This document shows positions 5,059 to 63,486 of a stretch of 64,000 bases of DNA, piece by piece (the first letter of the stretch is position 1; every line of letters starts with the position of its first letter). The position numbers were made by a program, and so were the translations under genes. The stretch lies in assembly GCF_018977255.1 (NCBI RefSeq), contig NW_024704742.1:16742001-16806000 (forward strand), read 5' to 3'. The notes under the pieces are model-generated. The model was given only the letters and a program-made list of their open reading frames with translations. It was not told where the DNA came from and did not search any database. The DNA is from Callorhinchus milii. Taxonomy: Eukaryota.

Positions 5059-5185
5059 TATGAAAGAAACCAGCCTTTCCCACAAGCAGCGGAAAGGAGG
5101 ATCCAATTCAGCAAATTGCAAGCCCTGCCCGGTGGTTCATCCTACTCTTGTATGTGGAACTGATGGCCACACATACTCTTCTCTG
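5059..5185 (+). CDS. SPOCK3: Testican (SPOCK3-like) internal coding exon, N-terminal half of Kazal domain
   Basis: Pyrimidine tract plus AG at 5057-5058; donor GTAAGG at 5186. Phase 2 start, phase 0 end. Encodes MKETSLSHKQRKGGSNSANCKPCPVVHPTLVCGTDGHTYSSL, resembling human SPOCK3 MKEAG...CKQCPVVYPSPVCGSDGHTYS as I recall it. Confidence 0.93.
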
Positions 5186-10460: not shown

Positions 10461-11041
10461 GAATCACATTGTAATATATAGCACAAAAACAGGCCATTCA
10501 GCCCAATTGGTCTATGCCGGTGTTTATATTCCACATGAACCTCCTCCTGACGTTCCTCAACTAAGCCTTCAAGCATAACCTTCTATTCCTTTCTCCCTCA
10601 TGTACTTATCTAGCTTCCCCTTAAATACATCTCTGCTATTTGTCTCAACAACTCCTTGTGGTAGCATATTCCACATTCCCACTACTCTTTGTGTGAAGAC
10701 ATTTCTTCTAACTTCCCTATTCAATCTGTTTGTGACTATTTTATATTGATGGCTCCTGGGTTTGGTCTCCCCCAACATGGAAACATCTTCCGTATGTCGA
10801 CTCTATCAAAACCTTTCATCATTTTAAAGACCTCTATCAGATCATCCCTTACCCTCATCTTTTCAAGAGAAAAGAGTCCATGTATGCTCAGCCTTTCCTG
10901 ATAGGTATAACCTCTCGGTTCTGGGTTCATCCTTGTGAATCTCCTTTACATCCTCTCCAGTGCCTCTACATCCTTCTATAATGTGGGGACCAGAACTGCA
11001 CAGTATTCTAAGTCTGGTCTAACCAATGTTCTATTGAGGTT
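10461..11041 (-). mobile_element. CR1 LINE 3' fragment
   Basis: Minus-strand ORFs GLFSLEKMRVRDDLIEVFKMMKGFD and FTQRVVGMWNMLPQGVVE..FKGKLDKYM are the CR1 ORF2 C-terminus, frameshifted. Confidence 0.92.
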
Positions 11042-11440
11042 TACCATAACCTCTATAGATCCTTGGTTAGACCACACTTGGTTAGACCAATAATTGGTAC
11101 ATTTCTCCAATTCAGCACTATATCGTTCAGCATGAGAAAATGAAGGCTATAAACTCGGCATGAGAAAATTAGTGCTGTAAATGTGGTGTGGCATTGCAAA
11201 ACATTCTACACTACATGTACTACACTATCATTTCACAGAAAATTGTGGTTAAATAAAAGGAGTATTATTGCACAGGTTGTAAAAGTACATGAAGGTGTGA
11301 ACGTGTGTAAGTTATCTAAATGCGGAGCTGATATTGCATGTTTGGTGGTGAAAGGCAGCAATTCAAGCAATTGCCACCAAATGTTTGTGAATACTTTTAA
11401 GCATATATTTGTAAGAATCTATTTCTTTTCTTTTCCACAG

Positions 11441-11546
11441 TGCAAACTAGAATATCAAGCGTGCATGTCAGGCAAACAGATCTCAGTCACATGTGAAGGA
11501 CGGTGTCCCTGCTCATCCACAGTGGAAGGAAAAAATGAAAAGAAAG
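11441..11546 (+). CDS. SPOCK3: Testican (SPOCK3-like) internal coding exon, C-terminal half of Kazal domain
   Basis: Acceptor tttcttttcttttccacAG; donor AAG|GTATGG at 11547. 106 bp, phase 0 to 1. Encodes CKLEYQACMSGKQISVTCEGRCPCSSTVEGKNEKK, in frame with the previous exon; CKLEYQAC..GKQISV.CEG.CPC is SPOCK3-type. Confidence 0.95.
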
Positions 11547-17672: not shown

Positions 17673-17981
17673 ATGGGGCTTCTGTAGCTCAGAGGTTAGA
17701 GCACTCGTCTCTCAAGCGAGAGACCTGGTTCGATTCCCGTCAGGGTGAAACCTTGGGCAAGTTTCCTTACTCCACATGCCTAATAATAATCCCTCAAGAA
17801 AAAAAACAACAATAAATTGGTCACTGCAATCCACGACTGTTTGTGGGACACTGCTGTGCGCAATTGGCTGCCGTGTTTCGCCCACAAATATACAGTCAAT
17901 TCATTTTACAATATATTCTGTGAAGCGCTTTGAGATCTCTAAAAGAGAAACGTGAAAAGTGCTATATCAAATGCAAGAATA
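17673..17981 (+). mobile_element. tRNA-derived SINE, short form, older subfamily
   Basis: A and B boxes, ccttgggcaagtttccttactcc segment, and shared body and tail. Confidence 0.88.
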
Positions 17982-19039: not shown

Positions 19040-19898
19040 AATAATAATAATAGTAATAATCCTTGCATTTGGTAGAGTCTTCGAGACGTCTCAAAGTGGT
19101 TCACAGAATATTTAACAACAATAACAACAAATTAAATTTGTTTAGCGCCTTTCAGGTCAGGAGGACATCCCAAGGCATTGGACAGTCAGGGATCTGCACC
19201 CTAGCTGGTGGTTGAGATCAGGACGGGTGAAGGGCAGAGAACGAAGGAGGGTGATCGAAGCCACAGTCAAAGAGAAGGATCTTGTGACGGGTCTTGAAGG
19301 AGGCAAGGGAAGGGGCAAGGCGGAGAGTCTGTAGGATGGAGTTCCAGAGGGTTGCGGCAGAGAGGCTGAAGGCTCGGCAGCCAATGATGGGGGACATGAA
19401 GCAGGACAGAACCTAACCCCCTACCAACTTGTCAGTTCCTGATCGGAAGGAACTGACAGGTTGGTAGAGGGTTAGGAGGTCACAGAGGTAGAGAGGAGCA
19501 AGGCCATGAGGTGAGGACGAGGATCTTGAACTGTATCCTCTTGAGTTATGGGGAGCCAGTGGAGTCATGTGAGGATGGGGGTGATAGGGTCTTGGTCACT
19601 TTATGCGGTAAAGTGAATTGCCTGTACATTTTTGTGGACGAAACACAGCAGCCAATTGCACACAGCAGTGTCCCACAAACAGTCGTGGATTGAGTGCCCA
19701 AATTATTATTTTTTTAAGGGATTATTTACCCCAGAAAAGCGATCCATCAATCGACTAACAGCCAGGTTCCTACTTACTGCTAGTAAACAGAGGCGAGTGG
19801 AATAGGACAACTTGCCCAATGTTTCACCCTGCCAGGAATCAAACCCAGGTCCTTTCCTTGTGAGGCGAGTACCCTAACCACAAAGCTACAGGATTCCA
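19040..19898 (-). mobile_element. tRNA-derived SINE (long form) split by an L2 insertion
   Basis: Tail at 19040-19112; body and head at about 19599-19898, including the ccaggttcctacttactgctagtaaacagaggc segment. Confidence 0.82.
19114..19598 (-). mobile_element. L2 LINE 3' fragment nested in a SINE
   Basis: (CAA)n tail, stem-loop and L2 C-terminal coding remnants (gaggatcttgaac = FKIL). Confidence 0.88.
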
Positions 19899-21292: not shown

Positions 21293-21603
21293 GGAGTCCT
21301 GTAGCTCAGTGGTTGGAGCACTCATCTCGCAAGCAAGAGACCAGGGTTCGATTCCAACAGTGTGAAACCTTGGGCAAGTTTCCTTACTCCTCATGCCTGG
21401 TAATAATCCCTCAAGAAAGAAAAACAATAATACTTTGGTCACTCAATCCACAACTGTTTGTGAGACCTGCTCTGCGCAATTGGCTGCTGCGTGTCTCCCA
21501 CAATATCTACAGTCAATTCACTTTATACTATATTCTGTTAAGCGCTTTGAGACGTCTCAACGATGTGATAAGGCATTATATGAAATGCAAGGATTTATTA
21601 ATA
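21293..21603 (+). mobile_element. tRNA-derived SINE, short form
   Basis: ggagtcctgtagctcagtgg A box, ggttcgattcc B box, older-type tail gagacgtctcaacgatgtgataagg. Confidence 0.88.
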
Positions 21604-22305
21604 TTAGAGGAATCTCCTTGAAGTGCTGTTTGACCTTGTTATGTGCTATATCAAAAAGGAAAGAATTATTAATAAGATACTTCAATGTTCTCATTGTTTA
21701 CATCGTGTGCAAAACTGGAACAAATCTTATAAAGGGAGCAAAGGTAGTTTGGATAGAGTTCTTCTGTCAGTAAAACTTCACTGTAAGAGGGGTCTCCTTG
21801 GAACTGAACTGGCTCCAAGGTGTCATGTTTGGCAATGGCTCATTGGCAGGACTTGGGAGGGTAGACCAGTCACTAGGGGCAGGGTATCATCCCACTCATC
21901 TTGTCTTAATCCTGCAAGCAAAAGCCCTAATGGATAGGGTAGTCCTAGCTGGACAAGCAACAGGAAAGCTTGCCAGACCGTGATATCAATGGCAACCTAT
22001 GCAATTTTAGCTCCAGCAGTAGCCCCCACACACGCCCAACAAAATAAAACTTTATTGCACAAAATTGGAAAATTTAAAAAATTTAAAAATTGTACATTTA
22101 TTTTGGAAAACAAAGGTTCCAAAATTCATGCATGCAAGACATAACTGCATCATACATCAAACACCAATAATACTAATGCTGGTTCATGCTGCATATATCC
22201 TTGCCATTCACAACAATTTTGGACCCAAACATGTAGTATTTATGAAGGCTTACACAGCAGCAACAATAACAACTCGCATTCATATAGTGCTCCTCATGCA
22301 AAGTA

Positions 22306-26340: not shown

Positions 26341-26766
26341 ACAACAATAACAACAACAAGATTACATTTGTGTAGCGCCTTTCACGTCAGGAGGACGTCC
26401 CAAGGCACTCAACAGTGTACAGCATTTCAGACCCGAACTGGGGTCAGGGGGAGAGAAGGGTGGGGAGTGGAAGGGGGGGTGGCCGATGGTATGGTTGAAG
26501 AGGAGGGTCTTGAGGCGGTACTTGAAGGAGGCTAAGGAGGGGGCAAGGTGGAGTGACTGGGGATGGAATTCCAGAGGTTGGGGGCAGAGTGGCTGAAGGC
26601 TCTCCCACCAATGGGGCGAGTGGGTCGGGGGACATGGAGCAGGCCGGTGCCGGATGAGCGGTGGGAACAGGCGGATTCGTAGGGGATTAGGAGGTCGCAG
26701 AGGTAGGGTGGGGCGAGGCCATGGAGGGCTTGGTATGTGAGGACCAGGATCTTGAACTAGATCCTA
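26341..26766 (-). mobile_element. L2 LINE 3' fragment (family A)
   Basis: Reverse complement closely matches 20590-21002. Confidence 0.92.
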
Positions 26767-27960
26767 TGAAATAAACATTTACTCTTAGGCTTGGCTTTTT
26801 ATGGCAAAAATTTTAAACAAAGTAAGCTTGTTTTAGGAACCAAACCCTGCACGTTTTACTGATTTTTACTTCTTACTGAAAAAGCCTTGGGTTGGTCCAT
26901 ATGTCTGGTGCTTTGCCTCTTAACTCATATGTGGGAATGTAATGCAGAGGTTGGAATGTGACTGCCCTCTCCTATAGATGGAAGAGATGCTAGATAGGCT
27001 CTGAGGGGAACTCTTCCCCCTCAACAAAGCTAAGTGTCCTTCAGTAACGCTGAACAGAATCTATCCGTGAAATTGCCACTCTTTGATGTAAGTTAAAATA
27101 GTGTGAGGGCTGTGATGTTCTGACTCAGTGCAGCTATAAAACTGCTCAGTTCAACAAAACTATTATGGACTCGGCCGTTTAGCTGCCTAATGGTATTTGA
27201 GGCCAGCATTATGCGGCTGCCAAATAAGGATGTATTCAGCTTTACGAACAAATGTTCAGTTTTTATACTGAACTGTAGGAAATCTATTCACTAGGAAGAA
27301 TTACTTTTCTCTCATTTTCTCTCTATCCTCTCTATTGCACCAAGGCACATCTATATTTTGTGAACATCTAGGATTTAGGAAAGGGTTAGGGTTAGAGAAG
27401 TAGTACAATGACCACAACAATTCTGTTCTTGAAGGTATTTTTGTGACTTCTCCTCATGAGGTTTACATTAGCTATGAGTTTGCAGAACTCTGTATATTTG
27501 ATATAATTTTGTAGTTTTCCTCTGGTGAAGGTACATGAACCTCATTAAGGTCCACCTTATGCAAGGTCCACCTTAACCGACTTATTCAGAATCTATGGGG
27601 TAAAATTTGCAGAATTTGTGTTCTATTCCTTACTTAAGTTCAATTAAATTTTTTGGCTGAGAGCACAATTTTTGTCCTCCACCACCGCTAATACCCAATA
27701 ATAACAATAATAATAATAATCATCCTTACACGTTATCATGCCGTCAAAACACCTCAAGGCACTTCATATGATTTCCTGTAGAGTGCAGTGACTATATTTA
27801 GTGATAAAGAATGCAGCATATTTACAGAGTCCAGTCTCCACTCAGGTTTTCTTCTTTGAAATAACTTCCTTGTGACTTGCAATCATACACATCTTGCTGT
27901 ACAATCTTTGAAAGGAAAAGACATTCTGGATAATCAGCCAGCAACTTTGACTTACAATCT

Positions 27961-28415
27961 TAACACAAAATGCTGCAGATGCTGGAAATCTGAAACAAAA
28001 ATAGATGTCGCTGGGAAACACTCAGCAGGTCAGGCAGCATCTATGGAGAAAGGAAAGTGAGTCAACGTTTCAAGTCCACAACTCTTTGTTAGAACTTATC
28101 ACGTTGACCTTTACCATATCATCTGGGTCCCAGACTTTTCTCTCTCTGGTCTGCCGATTTTGTTGCAATTTTTACCCCGCTTTGTTTTGTATCATTAACA
28201 CCGCTTTAACTCATCATGCCCTGTCCTCTAGCCCATTTGCTCCTTTGTCTTCCTAGCCCTGCCTCCCCCTCTCTGTTAGCCCTCAAAAGCCTTTCCCTCC
28301 CAACATGCGTCAGTTTCTGACGAAGGATTATGGACCTGAAACGTTGACTCACTTTCCTTTTTCCATAGAGGCTGTCACCTAACCTGCTGAGTGGTCCCAG
28401 TGACTTCTGTTTTTG
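27961..28415. mobile_element. Penelope-like element terminal repeat (pLTR) in inverted arrangement
   Basis: ~100-bp inverted arms (27996-28096 and 28312-28415); right arm has ctgacgaagg...cctgaaacgttgact; 14-bp flanking direct repeat tttgacttacaatc. The Penelope assignment rests on my recall of this motif type. Confidence 0.75.
28312..28349 (+). ncRNA. Minimal type I hammerhead ribozyme motif (Penelope-associated), activity unknown
   Basis: CUGACGA (28317-28323), stem II agg/cct, GAAA (28338-28341), palindromic AACGUU in place of stem III, putative GUU cleavage triplet; stem I is short and imperfect. Confidence 0.55.
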
Positions 28416-30641
28416 ACTTACAATCCTGTTTGATACTGAACATCACAGTTACATTTCAGTAAATAGACTTGTCAAGGCTTGACAATCAGTATGTGGTTAA
28501 TGTTCTACTTTATGATAATGTAACCTGAAGCATCATTTGTAAACAATAGTGAAACAATATATCAAAGAGAGTTAATGTAGGACGCTTTACTGTTTCGTCC
28601 ACAAAATACAGTCAATCCACTTTACAGTATATTCTGTGAAGCTCTTTGAGACATCTCAAAGACGTGATAAGGCGCTCTATCAAATGCAAAGATTATTATT
28701 CTGCAAAGCTGGATCTGTACAAACCTTTGTTCCAAACATGAACGTGGGTAACATTAGTGAAGGCCGAGAGTAGTGCAAAATGTCCAGCAACTGGTCTACT
28801 CATGCCAGTCTCACACATCCACCAAAATATATTGTTCTCAGGCCCAGTTCCCAGGGCCCCCAACATAAACCAGTTTTTGATTGTGTATGATTTTGCGATG
28901 TACAAAATGTGAAATGCCACCATTAACCCAGCAGCTCCAGCCACTGAGAGTGTTTAAAGCCAACTCTAAGCCAACAGGAGGACCCAACACCTCGAAAAAG
29001 GTGATTGCATTGAAGCATCCCATGTGCCTATTTTGCTTCTCGTTGAGACAGCGACAGGGAACTACTGTTGCCTAACTATCTGTCAGTAATGAAGTAAACA
29101 ATAATTTTACATTTATATGAACATCAATTGTACATTTATAAGGAAAACATATTCAGCTGAATGTCAGAGACCAGCACACAGTAGAGTTGCCAGATATTTA
29201 TTAAGCCCAGCTTACTCGTTCTGAACTGACTTTCTAATGTTAACTTTAGTAACATTAATATTTAATGTTAAATATATTGAAGAACAATATATTTTGGCAC
29301 CTTAAATATAACCAATGCTTAGAATTTCTCATTTTCAGCTGCTGGTGCTTATCCAGGATTTTCTAGGTAACATTGTGTGTCCTGTAGTTCATGTAATATT
29401 TTTATCACTTATATGACAGGCTGCTGTGCTGACTGAACACAAAAGACCACAACAAATTGATAATGCTTTATGAGAAATGAAAGCAATTAGACCTCTGCTC
29501 TTGTGGTGTATAATTTTTCAAGTAAACCTTTATAAGAGTACATTATGGAACCCCTTTAACTCAGAAAAAATATCTTCAGCAAGAGGCAGAGTATATTTGT
29601 TAACTCTGCAGCCTTATTGGGTTTGTGCTTTCAAGAGCACACATACACATAAACAGCTTATTTCCATCCGGGTCAGTTTGAAAGGAGAAATTCCTGCAGA
29701 TGCATTGAATGTATCAGTTATGGGTGCCATTGATTTGCAGAACTTCAGTTCCTTTAAGCATATATCCTTGATGACTGGCAAAGTCAAGCACCCACCACCA
29801 TGTGTTTGCATGCTTCCACTCTACACAAGAACTCCATGGCTTAAGTTGAACTTCAAGGGCTATCTTGTGCTGATTTCTGTCTGAATGCACACCAGAAGAC
29901 TGAAATATGCCACAGTTTGGAGCTTTCTATTGTTGTTATAGTACAGGTCGCAGCAGGCCTGCCTTAGCAGGCAACTTGCTATTGTAAAACAGCCGATTTT
30001 CCCAGCTTTGAATATCCCAAAACCTGACATGAAATTTTTACCTCTGGGCATAGGATGTGTGAAGCCTGATTCCCTGTCAGACTGCTTCGATTCCATAATG
30101 AAACAGTGCAGAGTCAGCCAACTGTACCCGACAACTTTCAGTATATGTGCAGATAGCTTGACGTCACACGCACATTGCTAGATAAAAAGCAGTTACAATA
30201 AAAAGTTGGAGCAAAATCTCTGGAGATCAAGACATTCAGAAGCTTGCGTATTGTCATCTCCTGAAGTCCAGAGAACATGATAAAGTAGCAGCGGTTCGAC
30301 ACAAAGCAAAGCCTCTTGTTTGGCACCACATTTTGAGCCTCCAAAACTGCAGTGGTAAAGCAGCATAAGATGAACCAGCTCATCCTTATAACTTTGTGAT
30401 TGAACAGCAGGATCAAGGTCCATCCCAAAATTAAGAATACCAGATTTCATAGAGGTTGTTTCTGTTGTACCAGAAAGATAGTGTAAGGTTTGCTATGAAT
30501 ATGAAGCAAATTTGACCCTAGGATATGAGGAACAAACAAGCTAAAAGTTTGAAATAGAATTAATAAACAGTGTTATGCAGAGCACATTAAGCAGAACCTG
30601 CAAGTGCACAAAAATATACAATTCAGTACTAGTAACTATGT

Positions 30642-34146: not shown

Positions 34147-34406
34147 CACATGTTGATGGGATGATACCTCGGTCCTCCCCCGAGGCCCTCTAGCTGGCGC
34201 CTAGCCCAATAAAACACACTGAACGGGCAACCAGTCCGTATATACCATCCGTTCTACCCCCAAACCCTCGACCTGCATTTAACTTGGATTTTGCAAGCTG
34301 CCCATGCCTAGGTACTAACAATACATTTATAGAATCGACTTTATTCTCTCAGAAATCCATGTGAACATTGAAAGAACTTGTTTTCTTTTGAGTTTCAATT
34401 CCAATT

Positions 34407-34726
34407 ATAATAATAAATAATAATAATCCTTGCATTTGGTATAGCACTTTTCACGTTTTCTCGACATCTCAAAGTGCTTCACAGAATAGACTGTAAAGTG
34501 AATTGACCGTATATTTGTGGGTGAAGCATGGCAGCGAATTGCGTACACAGTGTCCCACAAACAGTCATGGATTGAAAATGACCAATGTGTTATTGTTTTG
34601 GAGGGAATTATTATTAGCCGTGTGGAGTAAGGAAACTTGCCCAAGGTTTCGCCCTCTGCCTGGAATTGAACTCAGGTCTCTCACTTGCAAAGCGAGTGCT
34701 CTAACAACTGAGCTACAGGACTCCAC
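34407..34726 (-). mobile_element. tRNA-Ala-derived SINE, short form
   Basis: Same head, body and tail as 254-581. Confidence 0.9.
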
Positions 34727-34964
34727 TTGTATTGATTAGGTACATTTTGTCACACAAGATAGTCAATCGCTAACTGGAAATATTTTAACTTTAGTATTCC
34801 TCCTAGTTCCACCTCATAGTTATTGTGCGTGTTAAATTCTGAAGAATATAATAATCCTTGAATTTTATACCGCACCTTTTACATTGGAAGAACATCTGAA
34901 AGGACTTCACAGGAGTAGTGACTGTGTTTAAGTAGGCAAACGTGGAAGCCAATTGGCATGCAGC

Positions 34965-38493: not shown

Positions 38494-39090
38494 AATAATA
38501 ATAATAATCCTTGCATTTGATTTTGCGCTTTTCACTTCTTCTAGACGTCCCAAAGCGCTTCACAGAACACACTGTAAAATGAATTGACTGTATATTTGTG
38601 GGCGAACGCGGCAACCAATTGCGCACAGCAATGTGCCACAAACAGTCGTAGATTGAAAATGAACAATTTATTATTGTTTTTTGTTTTGGAGGGATTATTA
38701 TTAGGCGTGTGGAGTAAGGAAACTTGCCCAAGGTTTCGCCCTCTGCCTGGAATTGAACTCAGGTCTCTCGCTTGCAAAGCGAGTGCTCTAACCACTGAGC
38801 TACAGGACTCCACATATAGTGCTTTTCACTTCTACTAGACGTCTCAAAGCCCTTCACAAAATATACTGTAAAGTGAATTGACTGTATATTTTGTGGGCGA
38901 AATGCAGCAGCCAATTGCGCACAGCAGTGTCCGACAAACAGTCGCGGTTTTGAAGTGACCAATTATTTTCTTGAGGGATTATTATCATGCGTGTGGAGTA
39001 AGGAAACTTCCCAAGGTTTCACCTTGCTGGGAATCAAATCCAAATCTCTCGCTTGATCTAACCACTGAGCTACTGAGCTACAGGACTCCA
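38494..39090 (-). mobile_element. Head-to-tail pair of tRNA-derived SINEs (young 38494-38813, older 38814-39090)
   Basis: Two complete heads (ggactcc at about 38805 and 39083) with no spacer between the copies. Confidence 0.9.
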
Positions 39091-40491
39091 TTGTACAATC
39101 AAGGTGAAGGTCAAGGACAAGCAACATGTATAAGATTGTACTGTAATGGGGAACTCACGACTTGCAAGTCAGTGATTGGAAGCCAGTTATATGAGAATTT
39201 CTGATCAGTTGTTGCTAAATAAGCTCTATGTCTAGACATGAGTTTCTCACTGTGTCATAACTTACCCTGGATTACTAGGATGCTAGACTCATTAATAAAC
39301 AGCTTGAAGCTGTAATGGGAAGACATTATGTAAGATACATATTATAATAATAATCCTTGCATTTGATATAGGACCTTATCAAGTTGTTGAGACAATTCAA
39401 AGTGCTTCACAGAAGTGAATTGACTATATATTTTGAGGGCGAAATATATTATATGTCATGCAGTATTATATATCATATAAGCCAGGTATTCTGGAAATAC
39501 AAGATCAAATGGGCAAAAGACCTTTTTCATCCATACCTTGCTTGTGATCTTGTCATCTCTCTCCATGTCTCAGCCATAGTTATTATCAAATAGTTAAGAC
39601 TATACCATTGTTTTAGAAAAGGACAAAAAGCCACAAAAATATGTTTTGAAATATAAGTCAGAACAGTTTGAGTGAAAAGTCAAAAAAAGATTTAAGCAGG
39701 ACGTCTACGGTATTCACATACATGCTCTTGAATTGTAAGGGCTGTGTGAGTTACATGATTCACTTCAGATTACCAGGTATTTACAGACTTGTACAATTAG
39801 TGTCTTACATTTTTCAGAACATATGACTTGCAAGGGGTGGAATCATTGCTTGGTAAGGGACATACCCTTAGAGACATCTCAAAGACGTGATAAGGTGCTA
39901 TATCAAATGCAAGGATTATTATTATTATCCTGTGGGTCAGTAGCTTTTGTGTTATGTTGACATGTGGGTGCTTGGGCAGTTAGTAAGGGGTTGGGACCTC
40001 AGTGTGGAGTGGTTGGACTCTTTCAGAACCTAAGTTGGCTTGCATTTATTAGGCTATTTTAGGTTATTTTCAAGCAGGAATTGTCAAGACTTTACTTTAA
40101 GTGACATGCCATTGAGGGTCTGAGCTGGGTTCCCTCTGGTTTTCTGTGTCATTACATAAGTGATTTGGAAGTGGAAATGGGGGACAAATATCATTTGCAG
40201 ATGTTACCAACTCAGGAGGATGTTGGAGCTTCAAAACCTGTTTTATGGCTTTTTGTCATGTTCTAAAAAATTGTATTGTTGTAACTATTTGGTTAACCAA
40301 GATTGGATGGTTTACCTATCAAATAGGTAGCTATTGAAGCTTAAAGTAGACAAATGTGTATTGGTACATTGTTGGAAAAAGAATATGAGATAGAGATGTA
40401 CATGAATAGTACAGAGATTTTTTCAGTTAGTTCTCTGCACTGCCATCTCAGCTTCTGCACATTTCAACAACTTTCAGCAAGATTCAGAGTG

Positions 40492-41159
40492 GTTCTAACA
40501 GAGCTGTCAGTGGTATAAACAGAATATAAAGTAGAATGTATATTATTGCATATCTCTCAGCATTTAGTGGTGTCCTGTTGATTTTGCCACGGTATAATTA
40601 CTTTGCTGCACGGTTATAATGATCTAACATATCCACGTCAGTACTCAGCAAGGAGCAGTTCAACTAGAAAAGAACTGCTACAGGTCAGGTTGCAAGCTTT
40701 GTGGAAGTCAATTCATTGACAGACTCTGCTCCTGGTGCATACAATTGGAATAAATCTTTACTTTTGAGAAATGAAGCTTCTCTTGACTCCAAAGAAGAGA
40801 ATTAGACTTTCAATGCACAATTTGGTTTGAAACTCTGGGTTAAAGTTTCAAACCAAATTACAATGTTTATTAACACTGGTGATCAATTTAACGTCGAAAT
40901 GATGTACAACACATTGGCAAATTTCTCAGGTGTGCTGAAAATTAAGCCCCCCACCACACATACCACACACAACATTGTCAGGTGGGAAGGCCTCAGGGGG
41001 ACAAGGCTCTCAACTTTAAGATCAAGAGATTTGGTGTTGTTCTAACAGCTGTCAATGGTATAAACAGAATATAAAATAGCATGTGTATTAATGCATATCT
41101 ATCAGCATTTGGTGGTGTCCTTTAGATTTTGCCTCAGTTGAATTACTTTGCTGCACAGT
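40492..41159 (+). repeat. Pair of ~122-bp direct repeats (40492-40614 and 41039-41159)
   Basis: gttctaaca..gctgtca.tggtataaacagaatataaa...gcatatct.tcagcattt.gtggtgtcct..gattttgcc...aattactttgctgcac in both copies; roughly 85% identical by eye. Confidence 0.85.
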
Positions 41160-41980
41160 AATGTGTTAAATATTGCAAGTTCATGTTCACCTACAAAACA
41201 CTTTATAGCACTCTGCAGTATATCCTGGGAAGACTTTTAAAATTGGCTAAGAACCATTGCCTCAGAGTTAGAGTCTCTTGGTCAACCCACAAATCTTCAT
41301 GTTCCCAGAAGACTTTGTGCTTGCTTTATCCAGTTTGAAAATCATTTAGTTGTATTTCAAGGAAATGTTTGGGTTCCAGATTGTGGACCAAAGCCTGGAA
41401 TAATGTGCCTGGCACAGTGAAAAATATCTAACTTACATAAAGAAAGATGATCCATCAAACCTTCCAAACACCAATTTAGTGAAACAAAATAGATTTGACA
41501 ATAAATACATAATCCTGCAGATGGTTATTGTTTCCGTACACATCTGCACTACTGTACAAACGTCCTTGTACCTAAATACTTCAAGAAAAAAGTCAAGAGG
41601 GAAATGTACAAACACTAATTGCAATAATTTCAGCCAGTAATTCTGTAGTAAACATCAGAGGCATCATTTAGTTAATTTCTCACAGTTAAAAGTTTAATTC
41701 TGTAAAGTGTAATGAAATGAATGCAAATGGTTTATAGAGATGTGGGATACACAGATCACTATTCTAATAAAACTTGGATTAACTGGTTTAATTATATTAG
41801 TTACAGAAATCAAATTGCACTGATGGATTCAGTTACTAAATCAGACTCTTCACTGTTGTTTTGGGGATGTACTTTCCCCCATCCCCAGAAAATGTGTTTG
41901 CTCTTCTGAATGAATGGTATGTTTGTGTGCGTGTGTGTACTTGTTAAGAATACAATATAATTGTATTTGCGACTATATTA

Positions 41981-50790: not shown

Positions 50791-51130
50791 TATTGCCATG
50801 TTTATATTGTACTGTGCTTGCTCATTCACACTTGGGACTGAATTGAGATTTCCCCAATTTACTCCACATCAGACCTTAGAGATAATACAGAGGGAACTCT
50901 AATCCTATCACTCAGAATTTCACTTAGATCTAGATTTTGGAAACTGTTTCCTTTTTACTAAGAGCAGAAAAAGACTTCCAAATTAAGACTGAATTGAAAA
51001 ATTCTTCACAAATCTGTGGAAACTTTAATTTCAAGACAAAATGGTCTTACCTGGCTAAATGTAGGTGGAATGTAATGCCAGCATGTAGGGGAGAGTATCA
51101 CTGAATAGCAATTGGAATGGGAATATCACA

Positions 51131-51459
51131 GTGGAGTCCTGTAGCTCAGTGGTTAGAGCACTCGCTTTGCAAGCGAGAGACCTGAGGTCAATTCCAGGCA
51201 GAGGGCGAAACCTTGGGCAAGTTTCCTTACTCCACACAGAGCCTAATAATAATCCCTCCAAAACCAAAAACAATAATAAATTGGTCATTTTCAATCTACG
51301 ACTGTTTGTGGGACACTGCTGTGCGCAATTGGCTGCCGCGTTCGCCCACAAATATACAGTCAATTCACTTTACAGTGTGTTCTGTGAAGCGCTTTGGGAC
51401 GTCCTCCCGACGTGAAAAGCGCTATATCAAATGCAAGGATTATTATTATTATTATTATT
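51131..51459 (+). mobile_element. tRNA-Ala-derived SINE, young short subfamily
   Basis: Intact head, CpGs retained, stem-loop agcgctttgggacgtcctcccgacgtgaaaagcgct, (TTA)n tail. Confidence 0.95.
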
Positions 51460-52094
51460 AATTGTTGCTGAATTGAAACCTCCAAATCTTTTAGATACAG
51501 ACTGTAGGATGCCTGTATCTAGAGTAAACCGGAACATTTGCAAAAAATATCTTAAGCTTGTGAGTGGAACTATGACCCGGAACACTTGATTACTGTTTTT
51601 TAGATGGACAATTTATTTTCCTTCGGATGATGAAAAAAGTTTCCAAGCTGTCAGACTCACTCTGCCCTTCCTAATTCTGTTAATAGCTAAAAAATTGGAT
51701 GTAATTCCAAGGATGGTTTGAGCTGACAAGAGGTCTGATCTGAGATGCTTCTTGTCAGGTTTGTGTGTGAGAAGCATCTGATCTGCTATGCATTTTCTTG
51801 ATTAGTGTCTAACCTTCAACAACCTTTCATGTCTGTCTTTCCCATTAAAGCTTCATCCATCAGTCCATCAAATAGGGTAATGGTCTGAATGGTTCTGAAT
51901 CGCTTTCGTTCCAGCTATTTTAGAATTGATGTTGGATAATTTTGCACAGTATTCACCATGTTGATTTAATATTATCGGTGTTCCACCTACATCATGGATT
52001 CAGTTGAAAAATAAAATGAAGCAAATAAATGCAATATCACCAAGTTCCCTTATGGTGTACTGGTAAAGGAATGGCACTGCTCAATGAACACTAA

Positions 52095-54165: not shown

Positions 54166-54498
54166 GTGGAGTCCTGTAGCTCAGTGGTTAGAGCACTTGC
54201 TTTGCAAGCAAGACACCTGGGTTCAATTCCAGGCAGGGCGAAACCTTGGGCAAGTTTCCTTACTCCACACAGAGCCTAATAATAATCCCTCCAAAAAACC
54301 CAAAAACAATAATAAATTGGTCATTTTCAATCTACGACTGTTTGTGGGACATTGCTGTGCGCAATTGGCTGCCGCGTTCGCCCAAAAATATACAGTCAAT
54401 TCACTTTACAGTATATTCTGTGAAGCGCTTTGGGACGTCCTCCCGACGTGAAAAGCGCTATATCAAATGCAAGGATTATTATTATTATTATTATTATT
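54166..54498 (+). mobile_element. tRNA-Ala-derived SINE, young short subfamily
   Basis: Near-identical to 51131-51459, including the cacagagcct variant. Confidence 0.95.
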
Positions 54499-55721
54499 TA
54501 ATTTACCGCATTTTGTAGAAAACATTTATGTTTCCTGAAAACAATTTCTGCAGAAGATTAAGAAGAGATTTTACTTCATCTGTTGAACCTAATTTAAGTG
54601 CTGTGTATGGTGATTCCTGGAGTGTTGTAGCGGTCAAGAAAAGGCGTTCCAGTCATCTCCCATCCAGAAGCACTCAGACAGAAAACCAATACTTCAGTAT
54701 TCATGATGCAGTAAGACAGTCCCTGGGGTAATAATAAGGCAACTATTTATCCCTTCCCTCACAGATATCCTGAGTGTAAAGTAGAGTCCAGTACAGAAGG
54801 AATAGCCGTGAGCGTAGAATTCCATAACAGCAAAAAAATTCCAAATAACCGTAAAGTTCATCTTCTTCCCACTTTTTAAAGTGAAGCAAAATTTACTGCG
54901 GCTTCAAGTTGTGGCCTGACTTAACCACAACTCAAGTGGTATATTCTATTTGACTGGTTAATGCTTCACTTAGGTCTAATTGGCAAAAGGGGTTGGAAGT
55001 ACTAATTCGGATTTACATAATGCCATGACACATCATTTGTTTATTAGTGCTAACATCTTGTAAGACCACTTTTTGATCATTGCAAATATAAATGCTGCCT
55101 GCCACTTTTTGGGGGGAAAAGTTTGAGGCAAAAGCAGTTTCGTGTTCATCAAAGTAAGCATGGAGAATAGAACACATTTTCCATCTTAATGTTTAATGTC
55201 GCCAACTATTCCTAGATCTGTTACAATATGGGCCATATGTAAATCAAGCTCCCTCTTGCTCTGCCTAAGTAATGTGCCTTATTTTTTCTTTCCTCACTGG
55301 GTTGAGCACACAAATTTATTTCATGTTTCTTGTTTCCTAAGGTCCCTTAAGAAAATAGGGATTGTGGCAGAGATGTAACTTATTGTCCTGATGTTAGCCT
55401 CACCGCTTGTTGAAATCAGATAAGTCCTTTAGAAAAACAGTTGAGAAAAATTTTCTTATAGAAAAACAATGGAGTGAAATTTGTGGCTGCTCCTGAATCC
55501 GTTCATTGCCTTAATTATCACAAGGAGCAGGTTAAGGAATACCGCAAACGTGTTCCTTATTTATCACTTCTCACTTACCTCAGTAATGAAATGCAACTCT
55601 CAGTCCCTAATCCACACAGCAACTCTCAGCCACACAATTAATAAAAACACAGGAAACTGCTTATAGAAGTGTAAACATTGGTAGAGTACATTTACATCAA
55701 AACATGTTATCAAGCAGGTAG

Positions 55722-57412: not shown

Positions 57413-59610
57413 AACAACAACAACAACTTGGATTTATATAGCGCCCTTCACACCGGATGGCATCGCAGAGCGCTTCACAATGACAGATCCCGGGGAGGGG
57501 GAGGAAGGTGACCAAAAGTGCAATCAAAAAGAAGGATCTTCAGCAGAGAGCTGAAAATAGGAAGAGAAGGGGTGAGGCGAAGGGAGTGAGGGGGTTCCAG
57601 AGCCTTGGGGCGTAGTCGCTGAAGGCACGGCCGCCGATGGTTGAGCGGAGGATTCGGGGGACAAGAAGGAGGCCAGACCCAGTGGAGCAAAGACAACAGG
57701 CACTGTTTTGAGGAGAGAGGGGTCAGAGAGTTAGGGGGGTGCGGAGGAGTGGAGGGATTTGAAGACAAGGGTGAGGATCTTGAAGTCGATCCTCTCTGGG
57801 ACAGGAGGCTAGTGCAGTCTGTCAAGGACAGGGGTTACCGGGAGCGGAGTTTGCTGTGGGTAAGAATGTGGGCAGCAGAGTTTTGCATGACCTGGATTTT
57901 GGGAATGATAGTGGGGGGGTACTGGTGAGGAGGGCATTTGAATAGTCCAGCCGAGAGGTGACAACAGCATGGACCAGGGTTTCAGTGGCTTTTGGAGTGA
58001 GGTATTTACGCAGACGGGCAATGCGTCGGAGGTGGAAGAAAGCGGTGCTGGTGAGGGACTAGATGTGGGGGAGGAAGGATAATTGGGGGTCGAAACTGAT
58101 GCCTAGGTTGCGTATGGGGTCGGAGAGTTTTAGGAGGAGGTCGGGTAGGTAGAGGAGGTAAGAACCATGTGATTTAAACGTTGACGAGAGCCAAAGAGTA
58201 TGGCTTCTGTCTTGTCAACATTCAGCTCAAGGAAATTCGCGCTCATCCAGCTCCTGATGTCTGACAGGCAGGCTGACAGAACATCAGGGGACTGGGGGTC
58301 GCAATGTGAGGTGGAAAAATAGAGTTGGGTGTCGTCTGCATACATGTGGAAGTGTACCCCATGACTGCAGATGATATCCCCAAGAGGGAGCATATAGATC
58401 AGAAAGAGGAGGGGGCCAAGGATGGATCCTTGGGGTACCCCGCAAGTAACCGGGTGAGAGCGGGAGGAGAAGCCGTTTGTGCAGATGTACTGCTGGCAGT
58501 TCGTGAGGTAGGACTCGAACCAGGCGAGTGCGGTCCGCTGAGGTGGATGACGGAGGAAAGGCGGTGGAGGAGGATGGCGTGAGCCCTGGTCACAGATAGA
58601 GAGGATGTCATTTGAGCGTTTCACAAGCGCAGTCTCTGTACTGTGGGCAGGGTGGAAACCGGACTGGAGGGGTTCGAAGAGGGAATGGGAGGATAGGTGT
58701 GTGAATTCTAGGACTTTTGTGAGGAAGGGCAGGTTAGAAATGGGGTGGTAGTGGTTGGGGTTTGAGGGATCTAGGGAAGGTTTTTTGAGGAGGAGGAGGG
58801 TGATGACAGCAGTTTTGAGGGGGGCAGGGACTGATCCAGAGGAGAGGGACTGGTTGATGACATCAGCCAGTAGTGGGCAGAGGAGGGGGAGCTGGGTGAC
58901 CAGCAAGTTGGTGGGGAGGGGGTCGAGGCAGCAGGTGGTGGGTTTCATTGAGGTGATGGTGGGTGAGAGGGAGGAGGAAGAGATGGGGAGGAAGGAATGT
59001 ACGATGGGGGTCGTGGTAGGAGCTGATGATGGGGAGGGTGAGGGGGATGGAGAGGGGGTGGTGGTGTGTGACAAGAGGCAGGAGGATGAGGCTGCTTAGC
59101 GGATGTTATGTATTTTGGATGAAAAGAAGTCCATGACCTCCTTGCACTTGGCATTGGATGTGAAGATTGAGGAGACCTGAGGGGATGCATGGAGGAGATA
59201 GTGGGTGATGGAAAAAAAGACTTTGAGATTGTTTTTTGATTCCAAGATGATGTTGGAGTAGAAGCCGTTTTCACGCGCATCAAAAGATGGTGGTAGCTGT
59301 GAAGATGCTCGAGCCACAGTTGGTGATAAACTGTCAGTCCAGTTTTCTGCCATCTGCGCTCAAGCAGCCGGGTTTGGGTTTTTAGGCAGCGGAGATGAAT
59401 GTTATACCAGGGGGATCGGGTGGGTTTGGAGATGGTCCTGGATTTCAGGGGGACGAGGGAGTTGAAAATGGAGGAGAGGCGATCACGGAGCAGCTGGACA
59501 GCAGCTTCAGGATCTCTGCAGGTGGAATGCCAGAGGGATAGTATATTTGAGGATGTGAGGGACTTTGTGAGGGTCTCAGGGGGTAGCCTTTTCCACGAGT
59601 GGTAGATCAC
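57413..59610 (-). mobile_element. L2 LINE (family B), ~2.2-kb 5'-truncated copy with degraded RT domain
   Basis: Motifs PWYN..LKTQTRLLERRWQKT, YHPISNLPFLTKVLE, QSGFHPAHSTETAL, GVPQGSILGPLLFLIY, YADDTQLY and LNVDKTE; frameshifts and deletions; (CAA)n tail. Confidence 0.95.
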
Positions 59611-59933
59611 AATACTGCTAGCTCCAGGATTCGTCAGTTATAAATGCTTTAATGACTCACGAAAATTAGATACCAAAAATAACAAAACAAAATATTTCTC
59701 AAATCTGAAAATGAATGGAGTACCATTCCCTGGAAAAGTAGTTCACCATAAAGTCTCTGGCCTGCAGAAATTAAGAGCCATTGTACTAACCTCTCCCCAT
59801 GATCTGATTTGTTGTTCTGCACCAGATTATGACAACAAAAAGTGAATGTTAAACAAAGCAAATTAAGTTACAAGCAACTCCAGCGACTAGCAATTACAAT
59901 AAAAGAACCCTTGCTTCAATTTCAAGATGGTGT

Positions 59934-62545: not shown

Positions 62546-62705
62546 TATAGAAAGTTACAGCACAGAAGAAAGCCATTCAGCCAATTGTGGCATGCGGGAC
62601 TCTAACCTTACGATGTCTGTTAAATTAGTTTTTATATGACATCTCTTCAGTCTCTTGGCACCAAATGAGTAATTAATTATGCCTACTATGTTGTTACAAG
62701 TAATG

Positions 62706-63040
62706 AATAATAATAATAATGATAATCCTTGCATTTGATATAGCGCTTTTCACATCAGGAGGACGTGCCAAAGCGCTTCACAGAACACACTGTAAAGTGA
62801 ATTGACTGTATATTTGTGGGCGAACGCGGCAGCCAATTGTGCACAGCAATGTCCCACAAACAGTCATAAATTGAAAATGACCAATTTATTATTGTTTTTT
62901 GTTTTGGAGGGATTATTATTAGATGTGTGGAGTAAGGAAACTTGCCCAAGGTTTCGCCCTGCCTGGAATTGAACTCAGGTCTCTCGCTTGCAAAGCGAGT
63001 GCTCTAACCACTGAGCTACAGGACTAACCACTGAGCTACA
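62706..63040 (-). mobile_element. tRNA-Ala-derived SINE, young, with duplicated A-box segment
   Basis: Matches 254-581; ctaaccactgagctacag is tandemly repeated at the head. Confidence 0.93.
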
Positions 63041-63360: not shown

Positions 63361-63486
63361 AATGCAGTGACAAGGAGTTCAGAGAAGTTGCCTCCAGACT
63401 AAAGGACTGGTTCAAAGTACTGCACGAAAATGGAAACTACAATAAGAAGAGTCGCGGACTTCAGAGACAAGACAAGGATAGAGTTA
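63361..63486 (+). CDS. SPOCK3: Testican (SPOCK3-like) internal coding exon, start of SPARC/EC calcium-binding domain
   Basis: Acceptor ttttgaacAG at 63359-63360; consensus donor GTAAGT at 63487. 126 bp, phase 1 to 1. Encodes (E)CSDKEFREVASRLKDWFKVLHENGNYNKKSRGLQRQDKDRV, matching the CSD.EFREVA.RL.DWFK.LHE motif. This frame is absent from the ORF track. Confidence 0.92.

Follow-up and report, generated by a model that had tools for sequence, protein, structure and literature searches.

An inverted repeat with a hammerhead core in Callorhinchus milii, read as a truncated Penelope-like insertion

A 64,000-nucleotide stretch of Callorhinchus milii DNA (assembly GCF_018977255.1, contig NW_024704742.1, positions 16,742,001 to 16,806,000; hereafter the window) contains, at 27946–28425, an inverted repeat with the core of a hammerhead ribozyme in its right arm. 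This unit is, with high probability, a single old insertion, truncated at its 5′ end and carrying an inverted end, of an endonuclease-positive (EN+) Penelope-like element (PLE). As in other EN+ PLE insertions, an inverted 5′-truncated copy lies beside a sense copy, a tail of the typical length (36 bp, within 30–40 bp) is present on one side only, a target-site duplication (TSD) coincides at both of its copies with a step in repeat depth, and the sequence belongs to a dispersed high-copy family with variable 5′ truncation. Because the repeat stops at the TSDs and the joints of other copies vary, independent truncated insertions are favoured over a fixed mini-element or a tandem retrozyme. A first-pass annotation, made by a model from the letters of the window, had offered two origins. 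One, a 5′-inverted truncated insertion, is supported by the tail on one side only, by the profile of depth and by the variety of junctions among other copies; the other, a small non-autonomous, retrozyme-like element, was not borne out, because there are no tandem units, only one sense hammerhead and no junction shared among the pieces listed (the last being weak evidence). Publications are cited by accession number below.

Architecture of the unit and its insertion site

The unit is framed by the direct repeat TTTGACTTACAATC, the left copy of which (27946–27959) is identical to the right copy (28412–28425) in 14 of 14 positions, exactly as first annotated. When an element of the same size was placed at random in the window 20,000 times, a flanking repeat of at least 14 bp resulted in five placements, all of them draws within 10 bp of the real site. 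The right duplication shares its first four bases with the end of the arm, so that the strict TSD is 10–14 bp long. A 12-of-14 match to it occurs 75 bp upstream (27871–27884) and might go back to an earlier local duplication of flanking sequence. The inverted arms (27996–28094 and 28315–28415) align with 83.3% identity over 102 columns (E 5e-24; 83 matches, 13 substitutions, 10 of them transitions, and 6 gap columns), which corresponds to a divergence of 13.5% (13 substitutions in 96 aligned bases). The arms of ~100 bp described before were thereby recovered; the spacer between them measured 220 bp instead of ~215 bp, and the tail, an unpaired 36-bp extension of the left arm (27960–27995, minus strand) with no counterpart in the right arm, had been overlooked.

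Tail and inverted arm (27996–28096, minus strand, with an end resembling a pseudo-long terminal repeat, pLTR) make up a short antisense copy of 136 bp, reaching from the edge of the hammerhead to the end of the tail. The sense copy is longer (~310 bp) and lacks the tail; it consists of pyrimidine-rich spacer (28104–28314, plus strand), which contig depth marks as family sequence from upstream of the hammerhead, that is, as the 3′ part of a 5′-truncated copy, and of the sense arm (28315–28415, plus strand) with its pLTR-like end, the last four bases of which lie in the right duplication. The copies meet head to head within 28097–28110, a range that brackets the exact breakpoint and in which the 8-mer 28101–28108 equals 28341–28348 and is complementary to the stem III region of the left arm. 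Folded as a whole, the unit forms one long hairpin (−170.8 kcal/mol, z −11.8), and 0 of 100 shuffles were equally stable. The spacer contains no convincing open reading frame (ORF) in six frames, in keeping with the earlier description of the unit as ORF-less; there are no tandem units within 26500–30000, and neither blastn nor nhmmer found further copies of the arms in the window. On the minus strand, the sense strand of the element, the boundary between arm and tail (27989–27996) looks like a strong splice acceptor (a pyrimidine run and CAG) and was flagged by the exon scan; an intron in the 5′ untranslated region of a PLE may have its 3′ end here. Since the sense arm ends just before that AG, the host intron (see below) gains no acceptor from the insertion.

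PLE insertions have been described to carry a tail of 30–40 bp on one end and an adjacent inverted, 5′-truncated copy (PMC8557442), rotifer PLEs to combine an inverted pLTR with a 31-bp tail and a TSD of 9–10 bp (PMC3846280), and dual minimal hammerhead ribozymes (min-HHRs) on opposite strands, 100–700 bp apart, to be probable truncated PLEs (PMC4209133). With EN+ insertions of the Penelope/Poseidon and Neptune groups (PMC3846280, PMC8557442, PMC11167929), the present unit shares the head-to-head inverted end, the tail on one arm, the TSD, the 5′ truncation and the hammerhead in the terminal repeat. It differs from them in that no ORF is left and in that the TSD spans 10–14 bp, compared with 8–10 bp in the rotifer examples.

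Other copies and the origin of the insertion

Contigs of four public runs with the same species label (X1, X2, X5 and X12) were aligned to 27780–28589 at 80% likeness, whereby 9,526 of 7,939,851 contigs (X1), 8,628 of 6,922,088 (X2), 2,086 of 1,370,769 (X5) and 435 of 1,564,475 (X12) were placed. What is said here of joints, pieces, loose ends and variants refers to those listed (15 of 114 joints, 32 of 21,220 pieces, 24 of 881 loose ends and 40 of 55 variant rows). Depth of the single-locus flank was 10.3 in X1 and 8.5 in X2 (7.5 on the right side from 28428 in X2, from one contig with 0 differences). Every X1 bin from 27942 to 28427 had at least 100 times the flank depth; repeat cover started in the bin holding the left duplication (27942–27968), fell from 28428, and hence halted at both duplications. 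Summed X1 depth amounted to 160,000–860,000 over tail and left arm (318,433 in the tail bin 27969–27995), 37,000–65,000 over the right arm and 1,271–33,857 over the spacer, and X1 contigs broke off in the tail at 27962 (165 contigs) and 27966 (186 contigs). In contigs of other copies the spacer continues into the core (records 7, 8, 22 and 23), which identifies the spacer as the upstream sequence of the family. Arms, tail and spacer are all part of one very abundant dispersed repeat family. Both X1 and X2 carry the insertion itself, since each has a flank contig that enters the element with 0 differences; in X5 and X12 the flanks were not covered by contigs. Among the runs listed as containing the locus, none is recorded as RNA; like the uncovered flanks, this has no bearing on expression.

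Other copies join the arms at many different places. Eleven of the 15 listed joints connect the left to the right arm, at 11 different pairs of coordinates and in one or two contigs per run each; for six of them, the short side reaches 30 letters or more in one or more runs. Four joints are strand switches. The first-pass annotation had proposed to ask whether copies share both termini or the arms only, and the contigs bear on this: the joints listed (15 of 114) differ. The inner end of the left arm near 28096 does recur in other copies (4 of the 32 listed pieces end there). Loose ends behind 28076 (134, 112, 45 and 14 contigs, by run) yielded consensuses that, in sense reading, pass through an undamaged CTGACGA core; the runs give the same 20 letters before they diverge. 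Many copies therefore seem to stop close to the 5′ margin of the hammerhead, as the left arm does here. Ends in the family thus seem to gather at the 5′ edge of stem I (28076–28096 and 28315), away from the cut site, possibly by run-off at the 5′ end of the RNA or by stalling at structure. At the cut site, no excess of contig ends was seen among the loose ends listed (24 of 881), which is weak evidence.

The insertion could have arisen as follows. A PLE protein with reverse transcriptase (RT) and GIY-YIG domains, supplied in trans, would have placed nicks ~14 bp apart in the two strands of the target, and cDNA would have been primed at two start sites one tail-length apart, as in the anole system. 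According to PMC11167929, the tail is the stretch between two RT start sites, and both target strands are cut and extended in vitro. Both cDNAs would have stopped early, one near the 5′ edge of the hammerhead and the other ~210 bp further, whereupon they would have been joined head to head and the gap filled. The arms would since have drifted 13.5% apart.

Several observations count against this origin or lower its weight. The unit is assigned to the PLEs by architecture and motif. An ORF with RT and GIY-YIG is a defining feature of PLEs, and protein searches with two short translations from the arms, a weak test, returned neither RT nor GIY-YIG. The left-arm frame P0001 gave two candidates among longer proteins, none at E ≤ 0.01, and frame P0002 matched two of 1.84 billion representatives, both being tandem-repeat artefacts devoid of RT or GIY-YIG. 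Scans for the family pattern in viral, metagenome and prokaryote collections, where fish DNA is not expected, yielded 0 loci. Summed depth is not copy number, and the lower depth of the spacer may reflect under-counting of diverged copies; joints at 80% likeness can be artefacts. No joint of an empty site was found among the 15 of 114 listed. Finally, the TSD is perfect (14 of 14) despite the fact that the arms differ by 13.5%, a combination for which arithmetic gives a chance of ~0.13.

A route to the same dead stub that is less probable, but that deserves to be weighed, is self-priming: the inverted arm would have arisen by fold-back on an antisense template instead of by two target primings. 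Palindromes at junctions have been interpreted in this way (PMC3846280), and the junction here contains the 8-nt complement to the left arm. This 8-mer may, however, be family sequence or chance, and the extension of both target strands in vitro, with RT starts that bound the tail (PMC11167929), directly explains why the tail is one-sided. More distant from the truncated insertion, and improbable in our estimation, is a non-autonomous family in which the 450-bp fold-back is transcribed and re-inserted whole by PLE proteins, in the manner of a miniature inverted-repeat transposable element or a retrozyme. The clean TSD and the missing ORF would suit it, as would the spacer being repeated throughout (no bin of zero depth inside the unit), the recurrence of the left arm's inner end near 28096 and the fact that PLE ends can mobilize enclosed DNA in trans (PMC3846280). 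It is at odds with the many different places at which other copies join and with the lack of a tandem array; moreover, 0 of 32 listed pieces (of 21,220) cross 28097–28134, which is weak evidence given that the contig of this very locus is also missing from those listed.

With animal retrozymes not derived from long terminal repeats (non-LTR retrozymes; PMC7229834; bioRxiv 2026.07.22.740005), the unit has in common that it lacks an ORF, contains a type I hammerhead and pLTR-related sequence, is a few hundred bases long and has a long TSD. The retrozymes described there are built of tandemly repeated units with canonical type I hammerheads, whereas the present unit is inverted, contains one sense motif of the minimal type and offers no basis for a circle running from ribozyme to ribozyme. 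The non-LTR retrozyme was rejected as a candidate on the grounds of no tandem units in 26500–30000, the single sense hammerhead and its minimal type.

The hammerhead in the family and in this copy

The sense motif (28312–28349, plus strand) is that of a minimal type I hammerhead with CTGACGA at 28317–28323, GAAA at 28338–28341 and C-G-U-U up to 28345, 3′ of which the putative cut would lie. C28342–G28343 form the palindromic pair 15.2–16.2, and A28324 is an extra base between positions 9 and 10.1. In the left arm the core reads CTAACAA (28092–28086, minus strand), as had been noticed before, so that G5 and G8 are lost. The consensus CUGANGA / GAAA / UH was accordingly found in the right arm and in the loose-end consensus of the family, and not in the left arm. 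By itself the motif is not conspicuous: 0.32 occurrences per window are expected by chance (60 Markov simulations) and one was observed. The Rfam check suggested by the first-pass annotation failed to return a hammerhead, be it at E ≤ 10 in 27500–28900 (one chance match) or at the gathering score in the whole window (10 tRNA matches only). As the motif is within chance and Rfam is blank, the reality of the hammerhead rests on the family data. Among the variant rows listed (40 of 55), none falls inside 28317–28323 or 28338–28345, and the core is intact in the loose-end consensuses. To judge by the letters, the catalytic core thus appears to be kept across the family, the conservation that had been proposed as a check. 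In the register of the left arm, position 16.2 (28066) varies in 17% of X1 depth, as expected for CpG.

The stems tell a different story from the core. According to X1 depth, the family differs from this copy at 28327 (G, 89%), 28329 (C, 83%) and 28337 (C, 69%), letters that restore a stem II of 5 bp. In this register the present copy reads G-U, G-C, A.C, U-A and U-G, which means that three family pairs are lost, including G10.1–C11.1; stable stems I and II with G10.1–C11.1 are present in the family letters and absent from this copy. Of the earlier structural reading, the CUGACGA/GAAA core stands, and the 3-bp stem II (agg…cct) is a shifted fallback register. The extra T said to weaken stem I is real (28314–28316) and would form a bulged U there. 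The loose ends before 28315 finish in CAG in each of the four runs, so that the third T is no general trait of the family and belongs to this copy or a minority. At the base of stem II, a second variant, seen in three X12 contigs behind 28315, carries G-C in place of A-U, with both letters of the pair changed. Compared with the min-HHRs of PLEs (PMC4209133), this copy has G-U instead of the conserved G10.1–C11.1, a mismatch in stem II and the bulged U in stem I; the stem II of this family, with 5 bp, is shorter than that of schistosome families (7–8 bp; PMC4209133).

The hammerhead of this copy is probably inactive, because pairs of stem II are lost, a T is gained, a sense partner is lacking and the core is predicted to be paired with the antisense arm. 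In the folding ensemble, the share of the cleavage-competent structure was 1.5e-3 for the core in isolation, 9e-7 for the right arm, about 1e-6 for the sense copy, 2e-13 once the left arm was included and 6e-24 for the whole unit. A local 6-bp hairpin is predicted to mask the core already in the isolated motif, and in the unit all of the core is predicted to pair with the antisense arm, which lies upstream and is transcribed before it. The suggestion that the antisense arm could sequester the core agrees with the predicted drop to 2e-13, and the caution voiced on activity was justified and even understated, considering that three stem II pairs, G10.1–C11.1 among them, are gone in addition to the extra T. 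No second sense motif was found in the 64-kb window, and when the core was cofolded with a second copy of itself, the active dimer was not obtained. Two points pull the other way: an alternative 3-bp stem II (A-U, G-C, G-C) has a probability of ~0.5 in the isolated core, and folding energies ignore tertiary contacts, dimers and help by proteins, so that inactivity is a prediction.

In line with low activity of such motifs, single min-HHRs reportedly did not cleave and dimers cleaved weakly (PMC4209133); the hammerhead of the anole PLE reportedly required protein for cleavage, and insertion in vitro did not depend on this hammerhead (PMC11167929). It is highly improbable that the present hammerhead shows activity in the host pre-mRNA and was co-opted for the splicing or the level of the host gene. 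In favour of this, every core residue is intact on the pre-mRNA strand, as is the palindromic C-G of stem III, and a role of intronic ribozymes in mRNA biogenesis has been suggested for amniotes (PMC6765202). Against this stand the stems, damaged relative to the family, the sequestration of the core by both the local hairpin and the antisense arm, the missing second sense motif along with the cofolded cores that gave no active dimer, and the report that cleavage was seen in 1 of 9 dimers predicted for Xenopus (bioRxiv 2026.07.22.740005). Most likely, the hammerhead is cargo of the family and no device of the host gene, and the unit would do nothing in the intron beyond forming, at most, a double-stranded RNA of ~100 bp.

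Genomic setting and significance

Two plus-strand exons upstream of the unit (5059–5185 and 11441–11546) encode the two halves of a Kazal_2 domain (E 6e-06 and 0.02), the second half lying in the exon 11441–11546 (also found by the exon scan), and a plus-strand exon downstream (63361–63482) encodes the start of SPARC_Ca_bdg (E 3.8e-07). The splice phases of the three exons are compatible. From the order of the domains we take the host gene to be testican/SPOCK-like; a search of the PDB with the third exon gave nothing useful. Because plus-strand exons with fitting phases flank it, the unit is inside a 51.8-kb intron with its core on the pre-mRNA strand, provided that no exon was missed between the flanking ones. 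The core had been placed in sense within an intron from the outset, and this placement holds.

About a quarter of the window is repeat, composed of copies resembling a short interspersed nuclear element (SINE) with a tRNA head and of remnants of long interspersed nuclear elements (LINEs). The SINE-like repeat (~330 bp, with (TAA)n-type ends) is abundant, its copies are up to 96% alike (254–582, 17682–17980, 21293–21606, 34392–34737, 38494–39090, 51130–51463, 54166–54499, 62702–63033 and others), and a 108-bp fragment of it (28593–28700) lies 170 bp to the right of the unit. A LINE remnant on the minus strand (57419–59637) contains an RT domain (RVT_1, E 6.4e-19), and many shorter, similar LINE 3′ fragments are spread across the window. 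A perfect 17-bp inverted repeat (28822–28838 and 29281–29297, 442 bp apart) could mark the two termini of a small remnant of a DNA transposon. Self-complementary stretches were also seen at 11010–11079 (80%) and 19412–19476 (87%), where motif scans found no hammerhead core, and a 150-bp direct repeat, 83% alike, at 40468–40617 and 41011–41162, 545 bp apart.

The single locus carries little weight: it is one decayed stub among very many and an unremarkable case of an insertion pattern already known. If an intronic ribozyme were active here and gated by an antisense arm, this would be of real interest, but the evidence points against it. Literature searches returned no description of the family or of fold-back PLE stubs in cartilaginous fish; they ran without Repbase or supplements, so that both have possibly been described. 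We would also consider, as an unlikely but instructive reading, that the fold-back shape aids spread or survival, in that the antisense arm, transcribed before the hammerhead of the element itself, would keep that hammerhead locked, and that units would either be mobilized whole or be tolerated in sense orientation in introns from which solo intact hammerheads are purged. In a milder version, the clustering of inner arm ends at the 5′ edge of the hammerhead would mark the 5′ end of the RNA. PMC8557442 treats the way in which PLEs form inverted ends and tails as a question still to be answered. The value of the finding thus lies in the family, the copies of which allow junctions, the side of the tail and the length of the TSD to be counted; if the milder version were true, its thousands of copies would constitute a natural test set for the two-start, twin-priming model of PLE inversion.

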